Of a DNA stretch of 64,000 nucleotides, positions 6,874 to 24,031 are shown piece by piece. This stretch comes from an uncultured Thermoplasmata archaeon. GTDB lineage: Archaea > Thermoplasmatota > Thermoplasmata > RBG-16-68-12. The position numbers and the translations under genes were made by a program. The notes below the pieces were generated by a model that saw only the letters and a list, made by a program, of their open reading frames with translations, was not told the DNA's origin and did not search any database. The stretch's first letter is position 1. Every line of letters starts with the position of its first letter. Location of the stretch: positions 96,001-160,000 of the forward strand of contig CAVYJM010000018.1 in the NCBI GenBank assembly GCA_963768855.1, read 5' to 3'.

Positions 6874-6895
6874 TCCGGGTCGAACGCCCCGGTCG
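6874..6895. repeat. 22-bp imperfect direct repeat, copy 1 (TCCGGGTCGAACGCCCCGGTCG)
   Basis: 20/22 identical to 7445-7466; 6884-6896 also equals 16520-16532 (tRNA-Asp 3' end, reverse complement). Confidence 0.6.
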
Positions 6896-16478: not shown

Positions 16479-16520
16479 AAGATGCGGTTCGCCTTCAAGC
16501 GGGTTTGCAGCGGGAGAGGA

Positions 16521-16593
16521 CGCCCCGGTCGGGATTCGAACCCGAGCACCCGGCTCGACAGGCCGGGATCATAGACCGCTAGACCACCGGGGC
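16521..16593 (-). tRNA. tRNA-Asp(GTC), 73 nt, no intron, CCA not encoded
   Basis: GCCCCGG/CCGGGGC acceptor stem, CCGGC-CTGTCGA-GCCGG anticodon arm, GGTTCGAATCC T-loop. Confidence 0.96.
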
Positions 16594-16620
16594 AGTGGGC
16601 GATGGCAACTGAAGGGGGCT

Positions 16621-16631
16621 AATTAGGCTTT
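16621..16631. repeat. Left att core AATTAGGCTTT, overlapping the tRNA-Asp BRE/TATA promoter
   Basis: Exact 11-bp AT-rich copy at 24021-24031, 7,400 bp away; on the minus strand AAAGCCTAATT ends 27 nt before tRNA position 1. Confidence 0.85.
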
Positions 16632-16666
16632 GGGACCGATATCGTGCTTTCCCGTGGTGCCAAATT

Positions 16667-17740
16667 TCAGTCCAGGGCAAGCGACTTCACCGCCTCGCGG
16701 TACGTCTCCATGGGCTGGAGGCAGTACGCGTCCCATGCGTCGCGGACCGCCCAGGCGCCCTGTCGTTGCAGGAAGAGCTCGGGTACGCCTTGGAGGAGTC
16801 CGTGGGTGTTCGCGGACCGCCGGAGGGTGTGCGAGGACACACGGACCTTCAGCCCGGCCCGCGCGGCGTACTCCTTGAACCTCCGGTTGTAGAGGTTCAG
16901 GTACACCTTCTTCGATGTCAGCGGGTCCCGGAAGACCGGGTCCTCGGGCTGCGGGTCCTTGAGCCGTTTCCACTCCTTGAGCCGCCGGGCCAGGCCCGCG
17001 TCCAAGAGTTTCTCCGCGTTCCAGCCGTGCTTTGACGGCCGCGGGTACGTCACCTTGGGCGGGGGTCCGAGTTCGACCTGGCCCCACGTCACGGTCCACA
17101 GGTCCTCGTGGCGGCCGATGGTCGTCCATTGGAACCGCGCGGCGAGGGACCAGGCGAAGTCCGATTCGGCCTCGGCGACGGCGAGCACGCGCTGGAGGTC
17201 CTCCTTGGAGATAGGCGCCCGGTTCTCCTTCGCCCGGTTGACCTCCTCTAGGGAGTACCGCTCCAGCTTTCGCCCCAGGTCGCGCACGCCGAGCCGGTCG
17301 AGTTCGAGTCGGTCGACCGCGTGCCGGAAGAAGCTCTGAATCGCGGAGACCCACACGTTGACCGTGTTCGGCTTCAAGGGTCGCCTTGAGTTCCAGGCAC
17401 GCCGGTAGGCCTCGAGGTCTTCCCAGGTGACCTCCCGGAGGTCGGACTTCCCGAGGGACGCCTCGACCCACTCGAACGTCGCCCGCGCCTTCTGCGTGTA
17501 CTCCCGGCGCGTGCCGGGAGCCTTCCGCTCGAGGTACGCGTCCCACTTGTCGAAGACCGGGCGCCAGGCCACGCGGACCGTGTGCTCGTCGGGTCCGTTG
17601 TCGGTGTCGCTTGCCGCGGGCTGCATCTCCCACGGATTTCGGTCGTCGTTCCTCAGAATGGGCTGAGGCAGCTCGTCGAGCGTCACGACCATGGAGACGG
17701 TCGCGCCGCTGGCGCTCTGCCACACTTGGGTTTCGCCCAT
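16667..17740 (-). CDS. Tyrosine recombinase/integrase
   Basis: Catalytic set R (TTIGRHEDL), K (RPSKH), HxxR (SSHTLRRS), W (QGAW), Y (WDAYC); N-terminal core-binding domain. Start at 17740 or 17692. Confidence 0.92.
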   Translation of the reverse strand: MGETQVWQSASGATVSMVVTLDELPQPILRNDDRNPWEMQPAASDTDNGPDEHTVRVAWRPVFDKWDAYLERKAPGTRREYTQKARATFEWVEASLGKSDLREVTWEDLEAYRRAWNSRRPLKPNTVNVWVSAIQSFFRHAVDRLELDRLGVRDLGRKLERYSLEEVNRAKENRAPISKEDLQRVLAVAEAESDFAWSLAARFQWTTIGRHEDLWTVTWGQVELGPPPKVTYPRPSKHGWNAEKLLDAGLARRLKEWKRLKDPQPEDPVFRDPLTSKKVYLNLYNRRFKEYAARAGLKVRVSSHTLRRSANTHGLLQGVPELFLQRQGAWAVRDAWDAYCLQPMETYREAVKSLALD

Positions 17741-17885
17741 CTCTGCGCACGACGACGGCATGGGCCTCGGAGGCTTAGAACCTTCGGGAGGAGACCCGCC
17801 GGTCCGACGAGCGACAAAACTGTTGTGCGCAGAGATGTCGTGACGAGGGCCGACGGGTCGGTCATCGGGAGAGGCGGGCCGCGCC

Positions 17886-18134
17886 TTAGGACTTTCCATG
17901 GAGCCTCCCGAGGGCTTCGTGTACATGCGCGTCCGTGAGCCGGCGGACGGGCTCGAGGCGCTGCATGGCGCGGAGTTCGTTCTGGGACTGGAGGGAGCGG
18001 GCGGATTCCTCGGCGAACATCGCGGCGAGCTCCTCGAGGGCCGCGCTGAAGGCGACGACGGCGGACTCGGCGACCTGGCCGTCGGCGAGGCGGAGCCGGA
18101 GGAGGCGGCGCACGTCCGCGGGGCGGACAATCAT
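17886..18134 (-). CDS. Histone-fold protein (82 aa) with extended alpha2
   Basis: By-eye alignment to HMf-type histones: ADVRRLL (a1), QVAESAVVAFSAALEELAAMFAEES (a2), RRLTDAHVHEAL (L2/a3); ATGA overlap with the RHH gene. Confidence 0.65.
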   Translation of the reverse strand: MIVRPADVRRLLRLRLADGQVAESAVVAFSAALEELAAMFAEESARSLQSQNELRAMQRLEPVRRLTDAHVHEALGRLHGKS

Positions 18135-18346
18135 CGCCAGCGCTCCCCATGGCGGATGGTCGCGAGCTCCTTCTCCTTGTAGGCCAGGAAGCTCAGGAGA
18201 GCGGCTCGGACAAAATTCGCCCGGTCCCGGAAGTGGAACTCTGGGGCATCGACGAGGGCGTCCATCCGCTCGATTTCGAAGCGGGTGACGCTGACCGTGA
18301 CGATGTGCTCAGCTTCGACCTCGGCGCTCGCGTTCGTCTCGTCCAT
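18131..18346 (-). CDS. Ribbon-helix-helix (CopG-like) regulator
   Basis: IVTVSV strand, RFEIERMDALV helix, RDRANFVRAALLSFL helix; AGGAGG SD before ATG 18346. Confidence 0.8.
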   Translation of the reverse strand: MDETNASAEVEAEHIVTVSVTRFEIERMDALVDAPEFHFRDRANFVRAALLSFLAYKEKELATIRHGERWR

Positions 18347-18657
18347 GCTTGTCCTCCTGTTCTGGTCTGAAGGCCTTCGTCTGGACCACAAGCTCGATGA
18401 GGAACTGGGGCTCGCGTCTCGGCGGGCGGTCCTCGGGGCTCACGGTCGGTCTCTCCTTCGCCGCATGGCGGCCGTCGTAGGGGGTGCTCGCCAGAAGCGG
18501 TTCCAGCGCATCCTGGGCCTCTCGGGCTCCTGGCAGGCCCTCGGGCCCGTCTGGGGCGGAAGCGTTCCCACGGCCCTTCTCGTCGTTTTTCTACCGAAGT
18601 AGAAGGTGGGTGCGGGCCGGGCTGGACCCGACACGACCCGCACCGTTGATTCGGAAC

Positions 18658-18878
18658 TCACGCCCGCCCTCCGGCGCGGCAGGGAGCACAGACGACCTCG
18701 ACCGCCTCGACCTCGGTCACGGGACCGCCGCGGTTCTTGGCCCCGAACCCGCTGCCGAGGAGGAGCGTCGTGATGAACGGCTTCCGGCATCGCTGGCACG
18801 CCGCGAGGGCGGAGAGCTCGAAGACCAGGCCGCTGGTCCGCGCCCCGAACGCCTCCCGGACGAGCTTGAGGTCGCCAT
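18658..18878 (-). CDS. Small Zn-finger protein, apparent 1-nt frameshift after codon 3
   Basis: ATG directly after the upstream TAG; restoring one C gives MATLKLVREAF...CQRC...CAPC. Confidence 0.55.
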
Positions 18879-19061
18879 CTAAATCGCCGCCGTCACGACC
18901 AAGTTCAGTCGCTCGGAGACCCGCGCGTGTCGCTCGACGACCACGTTCTTGACGTTCATGTCCGTGATGCCGTTCGCCACGAGGAACGCGTCGATGGCCG
19001 CCTTCTGCTGGGCGTCGGTCTTCGTCGCATCGACAGTCAAGACGAAGGCGTGCAAGACCAT
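18879..19061 (-). CDS. Hypothetical 60-aa protein
   Basis: GGGAGG SD, strongly GC3-biased codons. Confidence 0.65.
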   Translation of the reverse strand: MVLHAFVLTVDATKTDAQQKAAIDAFLVANGITDMNVKNVVVERHARVSERLNLVVTAAI

Positions 19062-19151
19062 GCTCAGGCCTCCCGCCGCCCGCGGACCCGAGTGACTCCC
19101 GGAGGAGGCGGAGCTCCGCGCGGTACGGGGCGACCGCCTCCTCGACGGCGA

Positions 19152-19505
19152 GTCGCGTCAGCCGCGACGGGCCTGGGCTGGCCTGCGAAGACATTCTACG
19201 CGCACCTCGACTACTTGGTGCGCCGCGGCGATGCGGCCCGCTCCGTGACCCGCACGGAGCGCGGCGGCGTGCGAGGCGTTTACCTGGAGGCGACCGAGGA
19301 CGGCGATTGCGCGAGCGCCCGCGCCCGCGCGACCGCCTGGCGGGAAATCCAGGATGTCACGGGGCGGGCGCGATGGCAAGGGAGGGGCCTGACGCCGCGG
19401 GAGTACTTCGACTGCCTGGAGGCGCTGGCCCGCGCCGGGGGCTTCCCCCGAAGCCCGGGCCGGGGACAGCGACGCGCGGAGTCGGGCGTCACGTGGGGCG
19501 AGTGA
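19152..19505 (+). CDS. Winged-helix protein, apparently lacking its N-terminus
   Basis: AKTFYAHLDYLVRRG helix followed by ARSVTRTERGGVRGVYLEATEDG wing; no convincing start codon. Confidence 0.5.
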   Translation, partial: VASAATGLGWPAKTFYAHLDYLVRRGDAARSVTRTERGGVRGVYLEATEDGDCASARARATAWREIQDVTGRARWQGRGLTPREYFDCLEALARAGGFPRSPGRGQRRAESGVTWGE

Positions 19506-19508
19506 CGG

Positions 19509-19765
19509 ATGCCCGGAGGTCCGGTCGCCATCGCGGGCGGTATCCTCCTCGTCGCGGAGCGGTCTTCCTGGTCCTCGCCATCCTCCAGGCGCAAGCGGGC
19601 TGCCTCGTCAACGCGACGTGGATGCTGGGCGCGGCCGCACTCGGACTCGGGCTCGGCGGCAAGGCAACCGTCAACCTCCCCGGAGGCCTCGTCGTCGCGG
19701 GCCCCATAGGCGTCGCCCTCATCGTCGCCTCGCTCGTCATCGGCCGCATGTACGGCGGCTGCTAG
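19509..19765 (+). CDS. Small (about 85 aa) 3-TM membrane protein, apparent 1-nt frameshift near 19558
   Basis: MPGGPVAIAGGILLVA joins GAVFLVLAILQ...VIGRMYGGC-stop in the neighbouring frame. Confidence 0.55.
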
Positions 19766-20038
19766 CGGCCCTCCCGTTTCGCCTCGAGGGCCTCGCCGCG
19801 ACCCCAGGGCCGCTCCCAGGGCGTCCCGGTCGCGGGACGGGCCCGAGGCCGTCCTCGAGGCCGGGCGCGTAGGGCGGGTCTCCTGCGCGTTTCTCCACCT
19901 GACATCCCCCTCCATGGACGGACAGCGGTCCCTCCATGCGGGACGACGCGCTCATTCGCCGGGCGTCGGGCAGCCTGGCGTATGCTTCGGAAGGCCCTCG
20001 AAAGGACTATATCTCCGGGAACGGGGTGGGGAGCCTCC

Positions 20039-20506
20039 ATGCAACCACCGTCGGAACCGCCGAAGAGCCACATCTGGCAGCGGCACCCGGGGCCCGTGGC
20101 GGGTCTGGTCATCGTGGGCCTGTTCGTCGTCGGCCTGACGGTCCTCATCGCTTGGCACGGTTACGGACTGACCGAGCCGCAGGCCAACGACTTTCTCAGC
20201 GCCACGCTGACCGTCACCGTAGGGCTCCTGGCTGGCGTCTTCTTCGTCGCGCAGCTGGCCATCTCGTCGCTCGCACGGCATCCGGCCGACCCGCGGCTGG
20301 GAGACCGGGAGGGCTGGGTCCTCGTATTCCTCCTCGACATCGGCGCATTGTCCCTCGCGCTGCTATTCGCGGCCGCGGGCCTCGTGGGCGCTTGGTCCGC
20401 GACCTCAGCCGTCGCGGCCGTGGCGTTCAGCTGGTTGGCCGGAATGTTCCTCATCGCCTTCGGCATCTTCTTCTTCTTCGGGCGTGCCCCGCCGGGCGCG
20501 AGCTAA
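20039..20506 (+). CDS. 4-TM membrane protein
   Basis: Four hydrophobic stretches; TATA-like GACTATAT at about 20005; convergent with the terminase (4-bp overlap). Confidence 0.7.
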   Translation: MQPPSEPPKSHIWQRHPGPVAGLVIVGLFVVGLTVLIAWHGYGLTEPQANDFLSATLTVTVGLLAGVFFVAQLAISSLARHPADPRLGDREGWVLVFLLDIGALSLALLFAAAGLVGAWSATSAVAAVAFSWLAGMFLIAFGIFFFFGRAPPGAS

Positions 20507-22266
20507 ACTCCCGGATTCTGAAGCCCGGCGGGACACCGGGCGTGCCGTCTCGCGTTCGCACCAACGTACTCCTGGCCGGAAACGATGGGCTGATGACACG
20601 TCTCGCACACGCCGAGGACGAGCGGCCGCTCAGGAGGCCGATGCCGCTCCAGGAGGGGCCGGGGCGATGCGGGGCCGAGCGTCGACCAGGTGCTCGGGAA
20701 GACGACGGGGCCCGGCTTCCCGCGCTCCCGCGTCAGGGTGCGGGACGCCAGGGCGAGGGAATCCGGGAAGTCGTCGTGCCCTCCCGCGGCCGCGTGCAAC
20801 ATGAGGTTGCCGCTCGCCGAGATGCGGTACTCGAAGGACGCGAGCTCGCGGAGGAGGTTCGCTTGCTGGGGCAGCGTGAGCTTGTCCGCCTCGAGGGCGG
20901 CCTTCAGGCGCGAGTAGAGCTCGACCTTGGACGGTAGGCTGAAGGTCACGGGCTCGACTGGGAGGCCCTTCGCCCGGAGGAGGTCGTTGACCGCGTGCGC
21001 GGAGGCGTCCGAGTAGATGCGGCGGAAGCGCCAGAGCCCATGCAGCCACGCGACGTAGGCGACCTGGTCGACGTACGACGTCCCCTCGAAGGTCTTGAGC
21101 CAGAGGACGCGGCCGTGGCCCGACGCGTCGACGCCGACGACCGTGAGCACGGTGCGGTCGCCGCCCTCGACCCTCGCCCAGTCCGCGCCGAGGTACCTCG
21201 TCATCGCGGCGTGCTCCTCGAGCGGCGTCTCGACCAGGGGGTAGGCCTGCACGGCGCGGGCGACGAGCTCGGAGGGGAAGTACGCGTTCTGCGAGGACAG
21301 GAACGCGGCGTGGTACTCGGACTCGAAGGACAGGGAGTCCATGGACGCCCGCTCCTTCTCCAGGAACGCGGGGGCGATGAGGGGACAGCGTTCCGCGGGG
21401 ACGTGCGACCGTGCGTACAGCTCCGAGTTCCACGCCCTCCAGAGGAAGCCGCTCTGCCCGAACGGCGTCGAGATGAGGACGACCTTGCCGCCCTCCGACG
21501 CCGCCAGGAACGGGCCCGCGGCCTGGTACACGGACTCGTCGACCCACGCGGCCTCGTTGAAGACGAGGAGGGAGACGCGGCTGAAGCCGCGGATGGTCAC
21601 GCCGCCGGACATGCCGCCCGGCAGGGAGTACACGCGGCTCGCGTTCGTCAGGGAGAGTTCGGAGGAGGAGAGGTCGACAACGGACTCGCGGAGCTCGCGC
21701 CGGGAGAGGGCGAAACCCTGGAGGCGTTCCATCCACAGGTCGCTCTGCCGCTGGGAGGGTGAGACGCACACGACGACCGCGCCGGGACGGACGACGGCGA
21801 GCCAGAGCGCGTACAGCGCGGTCAGGTGGTCCTTGCCGCTCTGCCGCGACCACACGAGGGCCGTGCGGTCGTGTCCGCGGATGAGCTCCAGGGCGTCGGC
21901 CTGGTAGTCGAAGAGGGAGACGCCGAGCCAGGTCAGGAACGCGGCCGGGTCCTCGACGAACCGGCGGACGAGGTTGTCGTCAAGACGCTCTATCGCGGGC
22001 TCCGGCTCTGGGGCGAGGCCGAGGAGGGACGCGACGCGGGCCGCCAGGCCGCCCTCCTCCCGCCGGGGGCGAGGCGGGCCGCCCGAGCCGGCGAGGGTCG
22101 AGGGCCTGCGGACGCCGAGGCGCGACAGCCGCTGCCGGATGTTGTCCCGCGACGTGTCGAAGCGGTCCGCCAGGTACGCGGTCGACTTGCCCTCGAGGTA
22201 CAGGTCCCTCAGGAGGGCGTCCTCCTGGGCCGTCCACTCCCTCGGACGGCCCGGCTTCCCGGTCAC
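20503..22266 (-). CDS. terL: Large terminase subunit with N-terminal HTH and C-terminal Cys/His motif
   Basis: LFDYQ (adenine-binding), SRQSGKD (Walker A), LLVFNEAAW (Walker B variant), ISTP; nuclease LGADWA, YSDAS, HDDFPDSLALA; GAGGTG SD before GTG 22266. Confidence 0.88.
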   Translation of the reverse strand: MTGKPGRPREWTAQEDALLRDLYLEGKSTAYLADRFDTSRDNIRQRLSRLGVRRPSTLAGSGGPPRPRREEGGLAARVASLLGLAPEPEPAIERLDDNLVRRFVEDPAAFLTWLGVSLFDYQADALELIRGHDRTALVWSRQSGKDHLTALYALWLAVVRPGAVVVCVSPSQRQSDLWMERLQGFALSRRELRESVVDLSSSELSLTNASRVYSLPGGMSGGVTIRGFSRVSLLVFNEAAWVDESVYQAAGPFLAASEGGKVVLISTPFGQSGFLWRAWNSELYARSHVPAERCPLIAPAFLEKERASMDSLSFESEYHAAFLSSQNAYFPSELVARAVQAYPLVETPLEEHAAMTRYLGADWARVEGGDRTVLTVVGVDASGHGRVLWLKTFEGTSYVDQVAYVAWLHGLWRFRRIYSDASAHAVNDLLRAKGLPVEPVTFSLPSKVELYSRLKAALEADKLTLPQQANLLRELASFEYRISASGNLMLHAAAGGHDDFPDSLALASRTLTRERGKPGPVVFPSTWSTLGPASPRPLLERHRPPERPLVLGVCETCHQPIVSGQEYVGANARRHARCPAGLQNPGV

Positions 22267-22409
22267 GACGGCACCTCGCTCCTCCCTGGAGAGGCCCGTG
22301 AATCCTCGAGGCGCGACCTCGACGGTTGAGGGCAAACTGTCATTATGTCACCAGGGGCCGCGTCACGGGCCCGGGGTTGCCCCGGCGACCTTTTTGTACG
22401 TGGGGAGCC

Positions 22410-23012
22410 GTGTCCGAGCCCGTGAAAGTCGCCACTGTCCTGGCAATCCTCGACCTCGCCATGATGGTCGTCCTCGGGGCCATCCTCATCCTCGGGTGGC
22501 TGTTTGCGCTGGCCTTGCGCGATGCGGCCTGGGCCGTCGCGGCAGCGACGATTGCCTTGGCCATGGCCACGATGTTCCAGCTGCGTCACTCGGCGGCCCT
22601 GTCGAATCAAACCAAGGCGCTCACTGAGGCCACCCGCGACCTCAACCGAATCGAAGAAAAGCGGGACCTCCAGGCCCGTCTCGGGAGGGCGATTGCCGCC
22701 GCGGACGCCTTTCTGCTCCTCAGCCCGGACGCGGTCAAGGTCAAATTCACACAGGGGATGGTCGACGCTCAATTCAGGGGCGGTCTCTACGCGCTCGCTA
22801 ACTACACGGACCTGTTCTCCGACGACGCCCGCAAGTCGCTGATGACCTGGCGTGACTACGTCGAAGGGCTCCATCCGTTCGAGGCGGGAAAGTACCTGTT
22901 CTCCTCGCCCTCCGGTGCGGACGGGGCGAAGCAGCCGGGCGAGGTTCGAGACCTTCAGACGCTCGTCGAACGCGAGGCACGCGCCTGGCGCGAGAGGCTC
23001 GTCAAGCTCTGA
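22410..23012 (+). CDS. 2-TM protein with coiled-coil and soluble C-terminal domain
   Basis: Two N-terminal hydrophobic helices, then QTKALTEATRDLNRIEEKRDLQARL; TTTTTGTA and GGGGAG before GTG 22410. Confidence 0.7.
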   Translation: MSEPVKVATVLAILDLAMMVVLGAILILGWLFALALRDAAWAVAAATIALAMATMFQLRHSAALSNQTKALTEATRDLNRIEEKRDLQARLGRAIAAADAFLLLSPDAVKVKFTQGMVDAQFRGGLYALANYTDLFSDDARKSLMTWRDYVEGLHPFEAGKYLFSSPSGADGAKQPGEVRDLQTLVEREARAWRERLVKL

Positions 23013-23023
23013 CGGGGGGTCGG

Positions 23024-23127
23024 GGTTCCCCGGCGAGTCGTTCGTCATGGCGATACCTCGGGAACCTTTCGGGGAACCGCACCCGCCTTCCCTCCCGTGC
23101 GAGCCGGGGAACCGTCCGGGGAACCGT
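23024..23127. repeat. Cluster of (CC)GGGGAACC repeats, four direct and one inverted
   Basis: CCGGGGAACCGT twice in tandem (23104-23127), CGGGGAACCG (23070-23079), CGGGAACC (23059-23066), inverted GGTTCCCCGG (23024-23033). Confidence 0.7.
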
Positions 23128-23956
23128 GCTCCTTCATGTGCCGCTTGACCTCCCGGCGGAGCATGAGCATGGCCTCGGAGTTCTCCCGGACCTGGAGGGC
23201 GAGCGCCTCGAGCTTGGCGTCGCGTCCGACGGGCTGCCGCCGCTCGAAGAAGGCCTCGAGCTCGTCCCACGAGAGCTTGACCGCGGGCGGACGCACCTCG
23301 ACGCGGGCGAGGGTGCCGCGTCCGTCCTCGTGGTTGTACGCCTTGAGGAGGAGACCCTCCGCGTCGAGGTAGGTCCGCGCCTCGACTCCCTCGAACCTCG
23401 CCGACGCCCCGTCCCGGAAGGCCTCGAAGGTCAGGGTGGCCTCCGCGTCCCGGTCGAAGGGGAGGCCGAGGAGGGCGAGGACGAGGTGTACCTCGGACAG
23501 GGTGAAGCCCCGCGGGGAGAGGAGCCGCAGCTCGAGGGTCGAACCGCCCACGACGACCTCCGCGGCCCCTTCGAGATGCGGCAGTGGGACCGCGGCGGTC
23601 AGCTTGTGGTCTCCGCGGTCCTTCCAGGGGCCGAGGGCCGCGAGCCGACCCGACGAGGGGAGGGAACCGGGGGAGACCGTGTCTGGGTCGGTTCCCCCGA
23701 CGATGCGCACGTTCTGCAGGAGGACGGGGCCGAGGAGCGAATCGAGGCTCGGCCGGTGAGCCTTGCGCCAATCATGAAGGAGCCGCTTCGCGTACCCCGT
23801 CGTCACATGGAGACGGGCTGCGACCTCGCCAGGTTTGCGGGCGAGCTCCGGGTGCTCGTCGAGGTAGGCGAAGACGCGAGCTCTTGCCGTGGGGGACGCG
23901 GTCGACGTTCGTTCGTCCCCCTGGTAAAGGTTCATGGAACCCTCCGCGTCGACCAT
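23045..23956 (-). CDS. HTH protein with possible replication-initiator (Rep_trans-like) core and coiled-coil tail
   Basis: N-terminal HTH (RVFAYLDEHP...GEVAARLHVTTGYAKRLLHDW); TFEAFRD...LLKAYNH...ARVEVR motif order; Rep call is inference. Confidence 0.55.
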   Translation of the reverse strand: MVDAEGSMNLYQGDERTSTASPTARARVFAYLDEHPELARKPGEVAARLHVTTGYAKRLLHDWRKAHRPSLDSLLGPVLLQNVRIVGGTDPDTVSPGSLPSSGRLAALGPWKDRGDHKLTAAVPLPHLEGAAEVVVGGSTLELRLLSPRGFTLSEVHLVLALLGLPFDRDAEATLTFEAFRDGASARFEGVEARTYLDAEGLLLKAYNHEDGRGTLARVEVRPPAVKLSWDELEAFFERRQPVGRDAKLEALALQVRENSEAMLMLRREVKRHMKEHGSPDGSPARTGGKAGAVPRKVPEVSP

Positions 23957-24020
23957 GTCAGAGAGTCCTCCGGCTGTCCGTCGAAAAATGAGAAAAAGGG
24001 TTCAGGGAACGACTATTTCG

Positions 24021-24031
24021 AATTAGGCTTT
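24021..24031. repeat. Right att core AATTAGGCTTT
   Basis: Exact copy of 16621-16631. Confidence 0.85.

Follow-up and report, generated by a model that had tools for sequence, protein, structure and literature searches.

What a histone-like protein does directly upstream of a tyrosine integrase, on a mobile element and in an archaeal lineage without canonical histones, is the question raised by the gene pair at positions 17886–18346 of the 64-kb stretch of DNA analysed here (the window), which derives from an uncultured Thermoplasmata archaeon. An earlier note, made from the sequence alone, had read this pair as a histone-fold protein translationally coupled to a ribbon-helix-helix (RHH) regulator, and had offered three roles for the former: compaction of element DNA, recombination directionality, and interference with host or helper chromatin.

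Both genes are located on the minus strand: the histone-fold gene (P0001, 82 aa) at 17886..18134, assigned from its open reading frame and its membership in an integrase-coupled protein family, and the probable RHH gene (P0002, 71 aa) at 18131..18346, assigned from a sub-cut-off match to Pfam RHH_8 and from language-model clusters. The two reading frames lie where the earlier note had placed them and its remarks on the sequence are correct, including the layout of translational coupling, in which the tetranucleotide ATGA, as read from the sequence, holds both the stop codon of P0002 and the start codon of P0001. GC contents at codon positions 1/2/3 were 0.80/0.45/0.89 for the 82-aa frame and 0.67/0.40/0.83 for the 71-aa frame, both coding-type for a genome of 67% GC, and a long overlapping frame showed the opposite pattern. 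Compared with a homologue from the same genus, the 82-aa gene differed at 5/2/12 sites over codon positions 1/2/3, a third-position bias which points to purifying selection.

The nearest genomes were soil and sediment MAGs labelled uncultured 'Thermoplasmata archaeon', so that the proposed host holds at the level of this lineage but not as Thermoplasmatales proper. The host genome (93.6% complete, 7.7% contamination) encodes Alba, HU was not found in it, and its sole match to the Pfam family PF00808 (CBFD_NFYB_HMF) is the 82-aa gene itself. PF00808 was matched in 0/79 genomes of the host's order, 24 of them of high quality, and in 5/401 genomes of the class, two of these five by way of members of the integrase-coupled family. 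The remark that the host lineage lacks canonical histones is borne out by these counts, which are in line with the literature, according to which histones are missing from most Thermoplasmatota (PMC13260811).

With the single P0001 sequence, phmmer against the PDB returned chance matches only, a word-indexed protein search recovered the query alone, and a scan of genome contigs gave no match; against PF00808 the protein scored 18.6 bits, under the Pfam gathering cut-off of 21.4. When 1.84 billion representative proteins were searched exhaustively, a family of 14 proteins with lengths of 56–94 aa was obtained at E ≤0.001. PF00808 matched 7/14 of these at E <1, its cut-off was passed by two relatives, and at least one family member has been annotated automatically in NCBI as an NFYB/HAP3 family protein. 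When the family profile was compared with the PDB, HPhA (E 2.4e-5) and HMfA (E 2e-4) were found, followed by many H2A chains and almost nothing else; from α1 to the middle of α2 the alignment of the family to HPhA and HMfA required just one gap, of one residue, located in L1.

Structure prediction with AlphaFold2, using the family alignment, gave a model with a pLDDT of 93.4 and a pTM of 0.74, in which helices at residues 5–15, 23–57 and 68–78 follow the short-long-short order α1-L1-α2-L2-α3. The best 50 rows of a Foldseek search of the PDB with this model were histone-fold proteins or complexes holding them (TM 0.56–0.75), among them NF-YB/NF-YC, H2A, NC2 and TAFs; no E-value was below 0.05, which is expected for so short a chain. 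The best match in the ESM Atlas (TM 0.80, 78 residues at 1.7 Å), again a histone fold, is a cluster of 99 proteins, 29% of which carry PF00808 and half of whose taxon-bearing members are labelled viral, and the same cluster was ranked first by a language-model feature search. The predicted structure, on which the earlier note had let its claim stand or fall, is a histone fold; family profile, AlphaFold, Foldseek and ESM Atlas agree, and on these predictions P0001 belongs, as a divergent member, to the histone-fold proteins.

For the homodimer, a prediction score of 0.77 was obtained, against 0.00 for the best control. In the calibration of this score, the mark was reached by 20/30 proteins solved as pairs and by 1/23 solved as single chains. 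At least 95% of the contacts agreed between runs, the partner pLDDT was at least 87, and the contacts comprised residues 21–22 of L1 with 66–68 of the partner's L2 and a crossing of the α2 helices near residue 36. The arrangement predicted is an antiparallel handshake homodimer with L1 against the L2 of the partner, whereby the passing score may partly reflect likeness to solved histone dimers, since many such structures have been solved.

Within this fold, the family departs from canonical histones in the length of its elements and at several conserved positions. HMf-type histones have an α2 of about 28–29 residues and a short L2. In the AlphaFold model of P0001, α2 comprises 35 residues (23–57) and L2 ten (58–67), and set against those general HMf lengths the α2-L2 stretch is about 12 residues longer; the extra residues reported before are indeed present, distributed over α2 and L2. 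No insertions or deletions occurred from L1 to L2 across 20 family members of 18–65% identity, which makes the longer α2 and the longer L2 family traits. L1 reads GQVAE in P0001 where HMf histones have RVS, and the L1 Arg position is occupied by Gln, Pro or His in the family. The L2-α3 segment of P0001 reads RRLTDAHVH, with the canonical Asp five residues after Thr replaced by His; family-wide, the RxT of L2 is kept (R65 nearly invariant, T67 in most members), and the fifth residue after T67 is His or Arg, never Asp, which leaves the RxTxxxxD motif incomplete. The changes noted previously at these contact positions (RV to QV, RKT..D to RRLT..H) can thus be read directly from the sequence. Invariant residues are A25, N52 and R55 throughout the family, with Q58 and T67 added within a closer set; of these, N52 and R55 are specific to the family. 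N52, R55 and Q58 follow each other at three-residue spacing on the α2 extension, within the stretch 49–63, which lies outside the predicted dimer interface.

Compared with HMfA/HMfB and HPhA, the family has the same fold, the predicted handshake dimer and the RxT, but a longer α2-L2 stretch, neither the L1 Arg nor the α3 Asp, and the new invariants N52/R55. Judged by these sequence traits, P0001 is not a canonical nucleosomal histone. That the family-specific invariants sit on the α2 extension, away from the predicted dimer interface, and that the classical DNA-contact residues are partly lost would suit an adaptor or chaperone of the integrase which does not bind DNA, the histone fold providing a dimer scaffold and the N52/R55/Q58 face docking the N-terminal domain of the integrase; for Orf2 of the haloarchaeal SNJ2, an action on the folding or stability of Int has been proposed (PMC5861418). 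We consider such an adaptor distinctly unlikely, in view of the retained RxT of L2 and of the mostly basic character of the family (median pI 9.8), with its charge on the surfaces by which histones usually bind DNA. P0001 itself is nearly neutral (net +1, pI 8.5), its positive charge being found on α1 (+4) and on the α2 extension plus L2 (+2).

The borders of the DNA that carries the pair were located near a tRNA-Asp (GTC) gene at 16518..16594 on the minus strand (ARAGORN; Rfam tRNA, 57.9 bits). At 27 nt from the 5' end of this tRNA begins the left copy (16621..16631, plus strand) of an 11-bp direct repeat, AATTAGGCTTT, of which the right copy lies at 24021..24031 (plus strand); both are assigned as putative att cores from the repeat count and an empty site. 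The 11-mer occurs exactly twice in the 64-kb window, in direct orientation, where 0.06 occurrences would be expected by chance with one mismatch allowed, and the copies are 7,400 bp apart, which gives a 7.4-kb element. A wetland metagenome contig joins position 16620 to 24021 over a single copy of the 11-mer, that is, an empty site. In a freshwater-sediment sample which also contains the element, one contig matches the left flank exactly and then runs on, past 16631, into the 14 bases found after 24031, so that the occupied and the empty form occur in one metagenome sample. From the empty-site contigs it follows that the element is a discrete insertion, which some genomes in the population carry and others lack. 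Carriage of the gene pair on a mobile element, as had been suggested, is hence supported by exact borders and an observed empty site; among the public metagenome contigs listed, none contained a circular attP junction, and none of the public runs listed as containing the element was an RNA data set.

A duplicated fragment of the tRNA-Asp gene was considered as the att site and rejected, as no significant copy was found to the right of the tRNA; with the repeat and the empty-site evidence, the border of the element is placed at the 11-bp repeat upstream of the tRNA rather than at a tRNA-Asp duplication. Around positions 6884, 7614 and 13436 the window has weak partial copies of tRNA-Asp. In related genomes of the same genus (e.g. 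G070:C38:2713-4520), tandem partial copies of the 3' part of tRNA-Asp are found near the full gene, which suggests that other elements have repeatedly used this tRNA as their integration site. Scanned against Rfam, the element gave the tRNA alone, plus one sub-threshold chance match.

In addition to the integrase, the histone-fold gene and the RHH-like gene, the element contains a terminase-like gene and a few ORFs without assignment. The terminase-large-subunit-like gene (20503..22335, minus strand) was recognised by PHROG phrog_2 (E 5.8e-38) and a weak match to Pfam Terminase_6N and has an N-terminal HTH; no capsid, portal or small-terminase gene was recognisable in the 7.4 kb, a gene content that suggests a satellite-like or decayed element. 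A full tailed provirus was rejected, given the length of only 7.4 kb, the lack of capsid and portal genes, and the resumption of host genes (DUF58, MoxR, DUF4129, transaldolase) from 24682, about 0.65 kb beyond the right repeat. Two cargo ORFs at the right end had no family match. The ORF at 18658–19194 (minus strand) has a zinc-ribbon-like CxxC...CxxC in its C-terminal part, its full-length composition is non-coding-like (GC3 0.70), and the true gene is probably shorter than the ORF. Neither the histone-fold protein nor the RHH-like protein matched PHROGs, tblastn searches of 50,697 phage records with P0001 and with the integrase gave no match, and a scan of IMG/VR viral contigs with a sub-family alignment gave none either.

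The integrase itself, a tyrosine recombinase at 16667..17740 on the minus strand, was identified by Pfam Phage_integrase (E 4.6e-7) and a SAM-like N-terminal domain, which agrees with the earlier placement of an integrase downstream of the histone-fold gene. This neighbourhood was compared across all loci of the family with enough sequence. At 23/23 loci (the window, L003/L004, L005, L015–L020, L121, L125, L127 and L128–L138), a tyrosine integrase was encoded on the same strand, zero or one gene downstream of the histone-fold gene; two further contigs, too short to judge, are outside this count. The gap between the genes ranged from a 4-nt overlap (L019, L121, L134) to about 250 nt, or was filled by one small intervening ORF. 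The loci span GC contents of 30–67% and many families of the phylum: L003/L004 and L005 are soil metagenome contigs and L015 is a genome of the same genus; L016–L020 come from five genomes of 38–59% GC that belong to other families of the class (Phage_integrase E 1e-19 to 1e-38); L121–L124, L125/L126 and L127 are further metagenome contigs; and L128–L138 are eleven genomes from other classes of the phylum. Seen from this comparison of sequences, P0001 is one member of a phylum-wide, integrase-coupled family and not an isolated odd gene.

The distribution of the family is patchy, with members in 2/29 sampled genomes of the genus, 8/401 of the class and 21/401 of the phylum, and of the roughly six tyrosine-recombinase loci in the host genome only one has a family gene. 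The nucleosomal histones of archaea are lineage-wide housekeeping genes, from which the family differs in being element-borne, patchy and located beside an integrase. At one locus (L137, G568:C56:103550-106738, 1227–1442 and 1459–1785), a canonical-type histone gene with RVS in L1 and RKTVKREDV in L2 lies directly upstream of a family member, and the integrase follows.

These arrangements bear on whether the protein might coat or compact the DNA of the element, or replace or disturb host chromatin, in the manner of bacterial plasmid-borne nucleoid proteins. A host order without a canonical histone, a host genome with Alba only and no HU, and the predicted histone-type dimer are points in favour of such a chromatin protein. 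Nonetheless we hold it to be very improbable, since it fits the linkage worst among the alternatives, leaving the integrase at 23/23 loci unexplained; so strict a tie to int speaks against a general role in chromatin, the longer α2/L2 and the missing canonical residues argue against HMf-type wrapping, and the canonical histone beside a family member in L137 suggests different jobs for the two. Nothing was found in support of compaction of element DNA or of interference with host or helper chromatin, two of the roles put forward at the outset. The third, recombination directionality, is the only one of them to have gained evidence, namely the integrase downstream at every locus that could be judged.

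A further possibility concerns transcription, on which the partner gene and the region in front of int have a bearing. P0002 matched Pfam RHH_8 at E 0.016, below the cut-off, its nearest language-model clusters were RHH_1/CopG/MetJ/TacA (scores 0.88–0.93), and a profile of three P0002 homologues found no relative in the PDB; the RHH regulator of the earlier note is retained as probable, on the strength of the clusters but with a sub-cut-off Pfam match. In L003/L004, L005 and L015 the histone-fold gene is likewise preceded by a homologue of P0002, and the ATGA overlap with an RHH-like gene recurs in the high-GC subgroup. The pairing is not universal: elsewhere the upstream partner is a wHTH protein of MarR/TrmB type, a coiled-coil protein or a protein without assignment. 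In L017 (G136:C12, 7133–9670), for instance, a wHTH gene (MarR/TrmB-like, 295 aa), the histone-fold gene, a 77-aa ORF, the integrase and a tRNA-Arg follow each other on one strand.

Between the histone-fold gene and the integrase lies a spacer of 145 nt (17741..17885, minus strand), delimited by composition and alignment. The integrase frame is open up to 17899 in all four loci compared, and some gene callers place the start there, with a 14-nt overlap with the histone-fold gene; this start was judged unlikely because the composition is non-coding up to 17740 and substitutions before 17740 show no third-position bias. The start is most likely the ATG at 17740 (MGETQVWQ...), where coding-type composition begins and which is kept as ATG/ATG/ATG/GTG in the four loci. 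A 60-aa ORF in the spacer was likewise discarded, its frame containing stop codons in L003 and L005. GC contents by codon position were 0.66/0.68/0.62 in the spacer, its substitutions are not third-position biased, and blocks of conserved nucleotides are present across the four loci; it is about 83% identical to L005, compared with about 54% for the sampled 3' end of the histone-fold gene. The spacer is apparently non-coding and may contain an operator, an int promoter or arm-type binding sites.

With a conserved non-coding spacer directly upstream of int, a translationally coupled partner that is a probable RHH repressor-type protein, and NF-YB/NF-YC and NC2, promoter-type histone-fold factors, among the best structural matches, P0001 could be a regulator of the integrase or lysogeny module, targeting the spacer or the promoter of the operon jointly with the RHH-like protein and taking no part in the recombination complex. 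Gene adjacency fits a transcriptional regulator of int equally well, and in P2 a single small protein, Cox, is both repressor and directionality factor. As the sole function of the family, regulation is nevertheless judged unlikely: the 4-nt overlap with int in L019, L121 and L134 leaves no room for a target spacer, many loci have no RHH partner, and a regulator would not need so tight a link to int across divergent integrases.

The reading towards which we lean, if only cautiously, is that the histone-fold protein serves the integrase as an accessory factor that bends DNA, or as a directionality factor, like IHF/Xis or like Orf2/Orf3 of SNJ2. The dimer would bind and bend DNA, help to assemble the recombination complex on the att DNA of the element, and so set the efficiency or the direction of integration and excision; the RHH-like protein would probably provide sequence-specific DNA binding or repress the operon. 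DNA binding, bending, contact with the integrase and a favoured direction of recombination are what we infer from fold, charge and gene order. The mostly basic character of the family and the position of the positive charge of P0001, in α1 and in the α2 extension plus L2, fit DNA binding, whereas the only partly kept canonical DNA-contact features and the near neutrality of P0001 speak against this reading. In a phylum largely without histones and a genome without HU, it would be plausible for an element to bring its own bending protein. The more specific proposal, that the family is the dedicated architectural or directionality partner of the integrases of Thermoplasmatota elements and that the N52/R55/Q58 face either reads att DNA or docks the integrase, is put forward tentatively, at a little less than an even chance.

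Known systems offer partial parallels for an accessory factor. In lambda, xis lies directly upstream of int, and this is where lambda-type excisionases sit. Lambda Xis, P2 Cox and IHF are, like the P0001 family, small and mostly basic proteins, but Xis and Cox have winged-helix or HTH folds and IHF the HU/IHF fold, all unrelated to the histone fold. All three bend att DNA to build the recombination complex (reviewed in PMC8371274). According to the same 2021 review, the archaeal integrases characterised so far all recombine in either direction with no need of a directionality factor, and no archaeal factor of this kind is recorded there as characterised (PMC8371274); a helper is therefore not obligatory, which is a point against the accessory reading. 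Among archaea, integrase helpers have been characterised for SNJ2 only, where Int is co-transcribed with two overlapping small genes that raise the efficiency of integration, orf3 coding for a MarR-type wHTH protein and orf2 for a helical protein of 111 aa (PMC5861418). The likeness consists in an archaeal tyrosine integrase preceded by two small overlapping genes on the same strand, and the layout of L017 comes close to it. Orf2 of SNJ2 has, however, been described as coiled-coil and prefoldin-like and not as a histone fold (the comparison being one by description only), and SNJ2 lives in haloarchaea, a group that has histones.

That viruses and elements of prokaryotes can encode histone-fold proteins has been described before, among the prokaryotic histone categories as 'phage histones' (PMC11390915) and for Caudoviricetes (PMC13681535). 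These proteins resemble the integrase-coupled family in being borne by viruses or elements and in lacking the full RxTxxxxD, but the phage histones described have a truncated α3, a shorter α2 and a C-terminal tetramerisation helix, in contrast to the full α3 and longer α2 found here. Integrases and members from Thermoplasmatota are mentioned in neither of the two papers (PMC11390915, PMC13681535). In the literature searched, no paper was found that describes the family, its altered architecture or its coupling to integrases.

If the accessory reading is true, archaea would have in this element-borne family their first equivalent of IHF/Xis, with a histone dimer as its framework. Histones are regarded as packagers of chromatin and archaeal integrases as free of helpers, with SNJ2 as the one exception; the family suggests, beyond the packaging histones, a third use of the histone fold, as a cofactor of site-specific recombination. 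Counts of histones in Thermoplasmatota may partly be counts of mobile-element cofactors, as two of the five PF00808-positive genomes of the class owe their match to element-borne family members. The small module of an RHH-like gene, a histone-fold gene, an integrase and an 11-bp core might serve as a compact recombination system, and the family would open a first way into the question of how the elements of archaea control integration versus excision.
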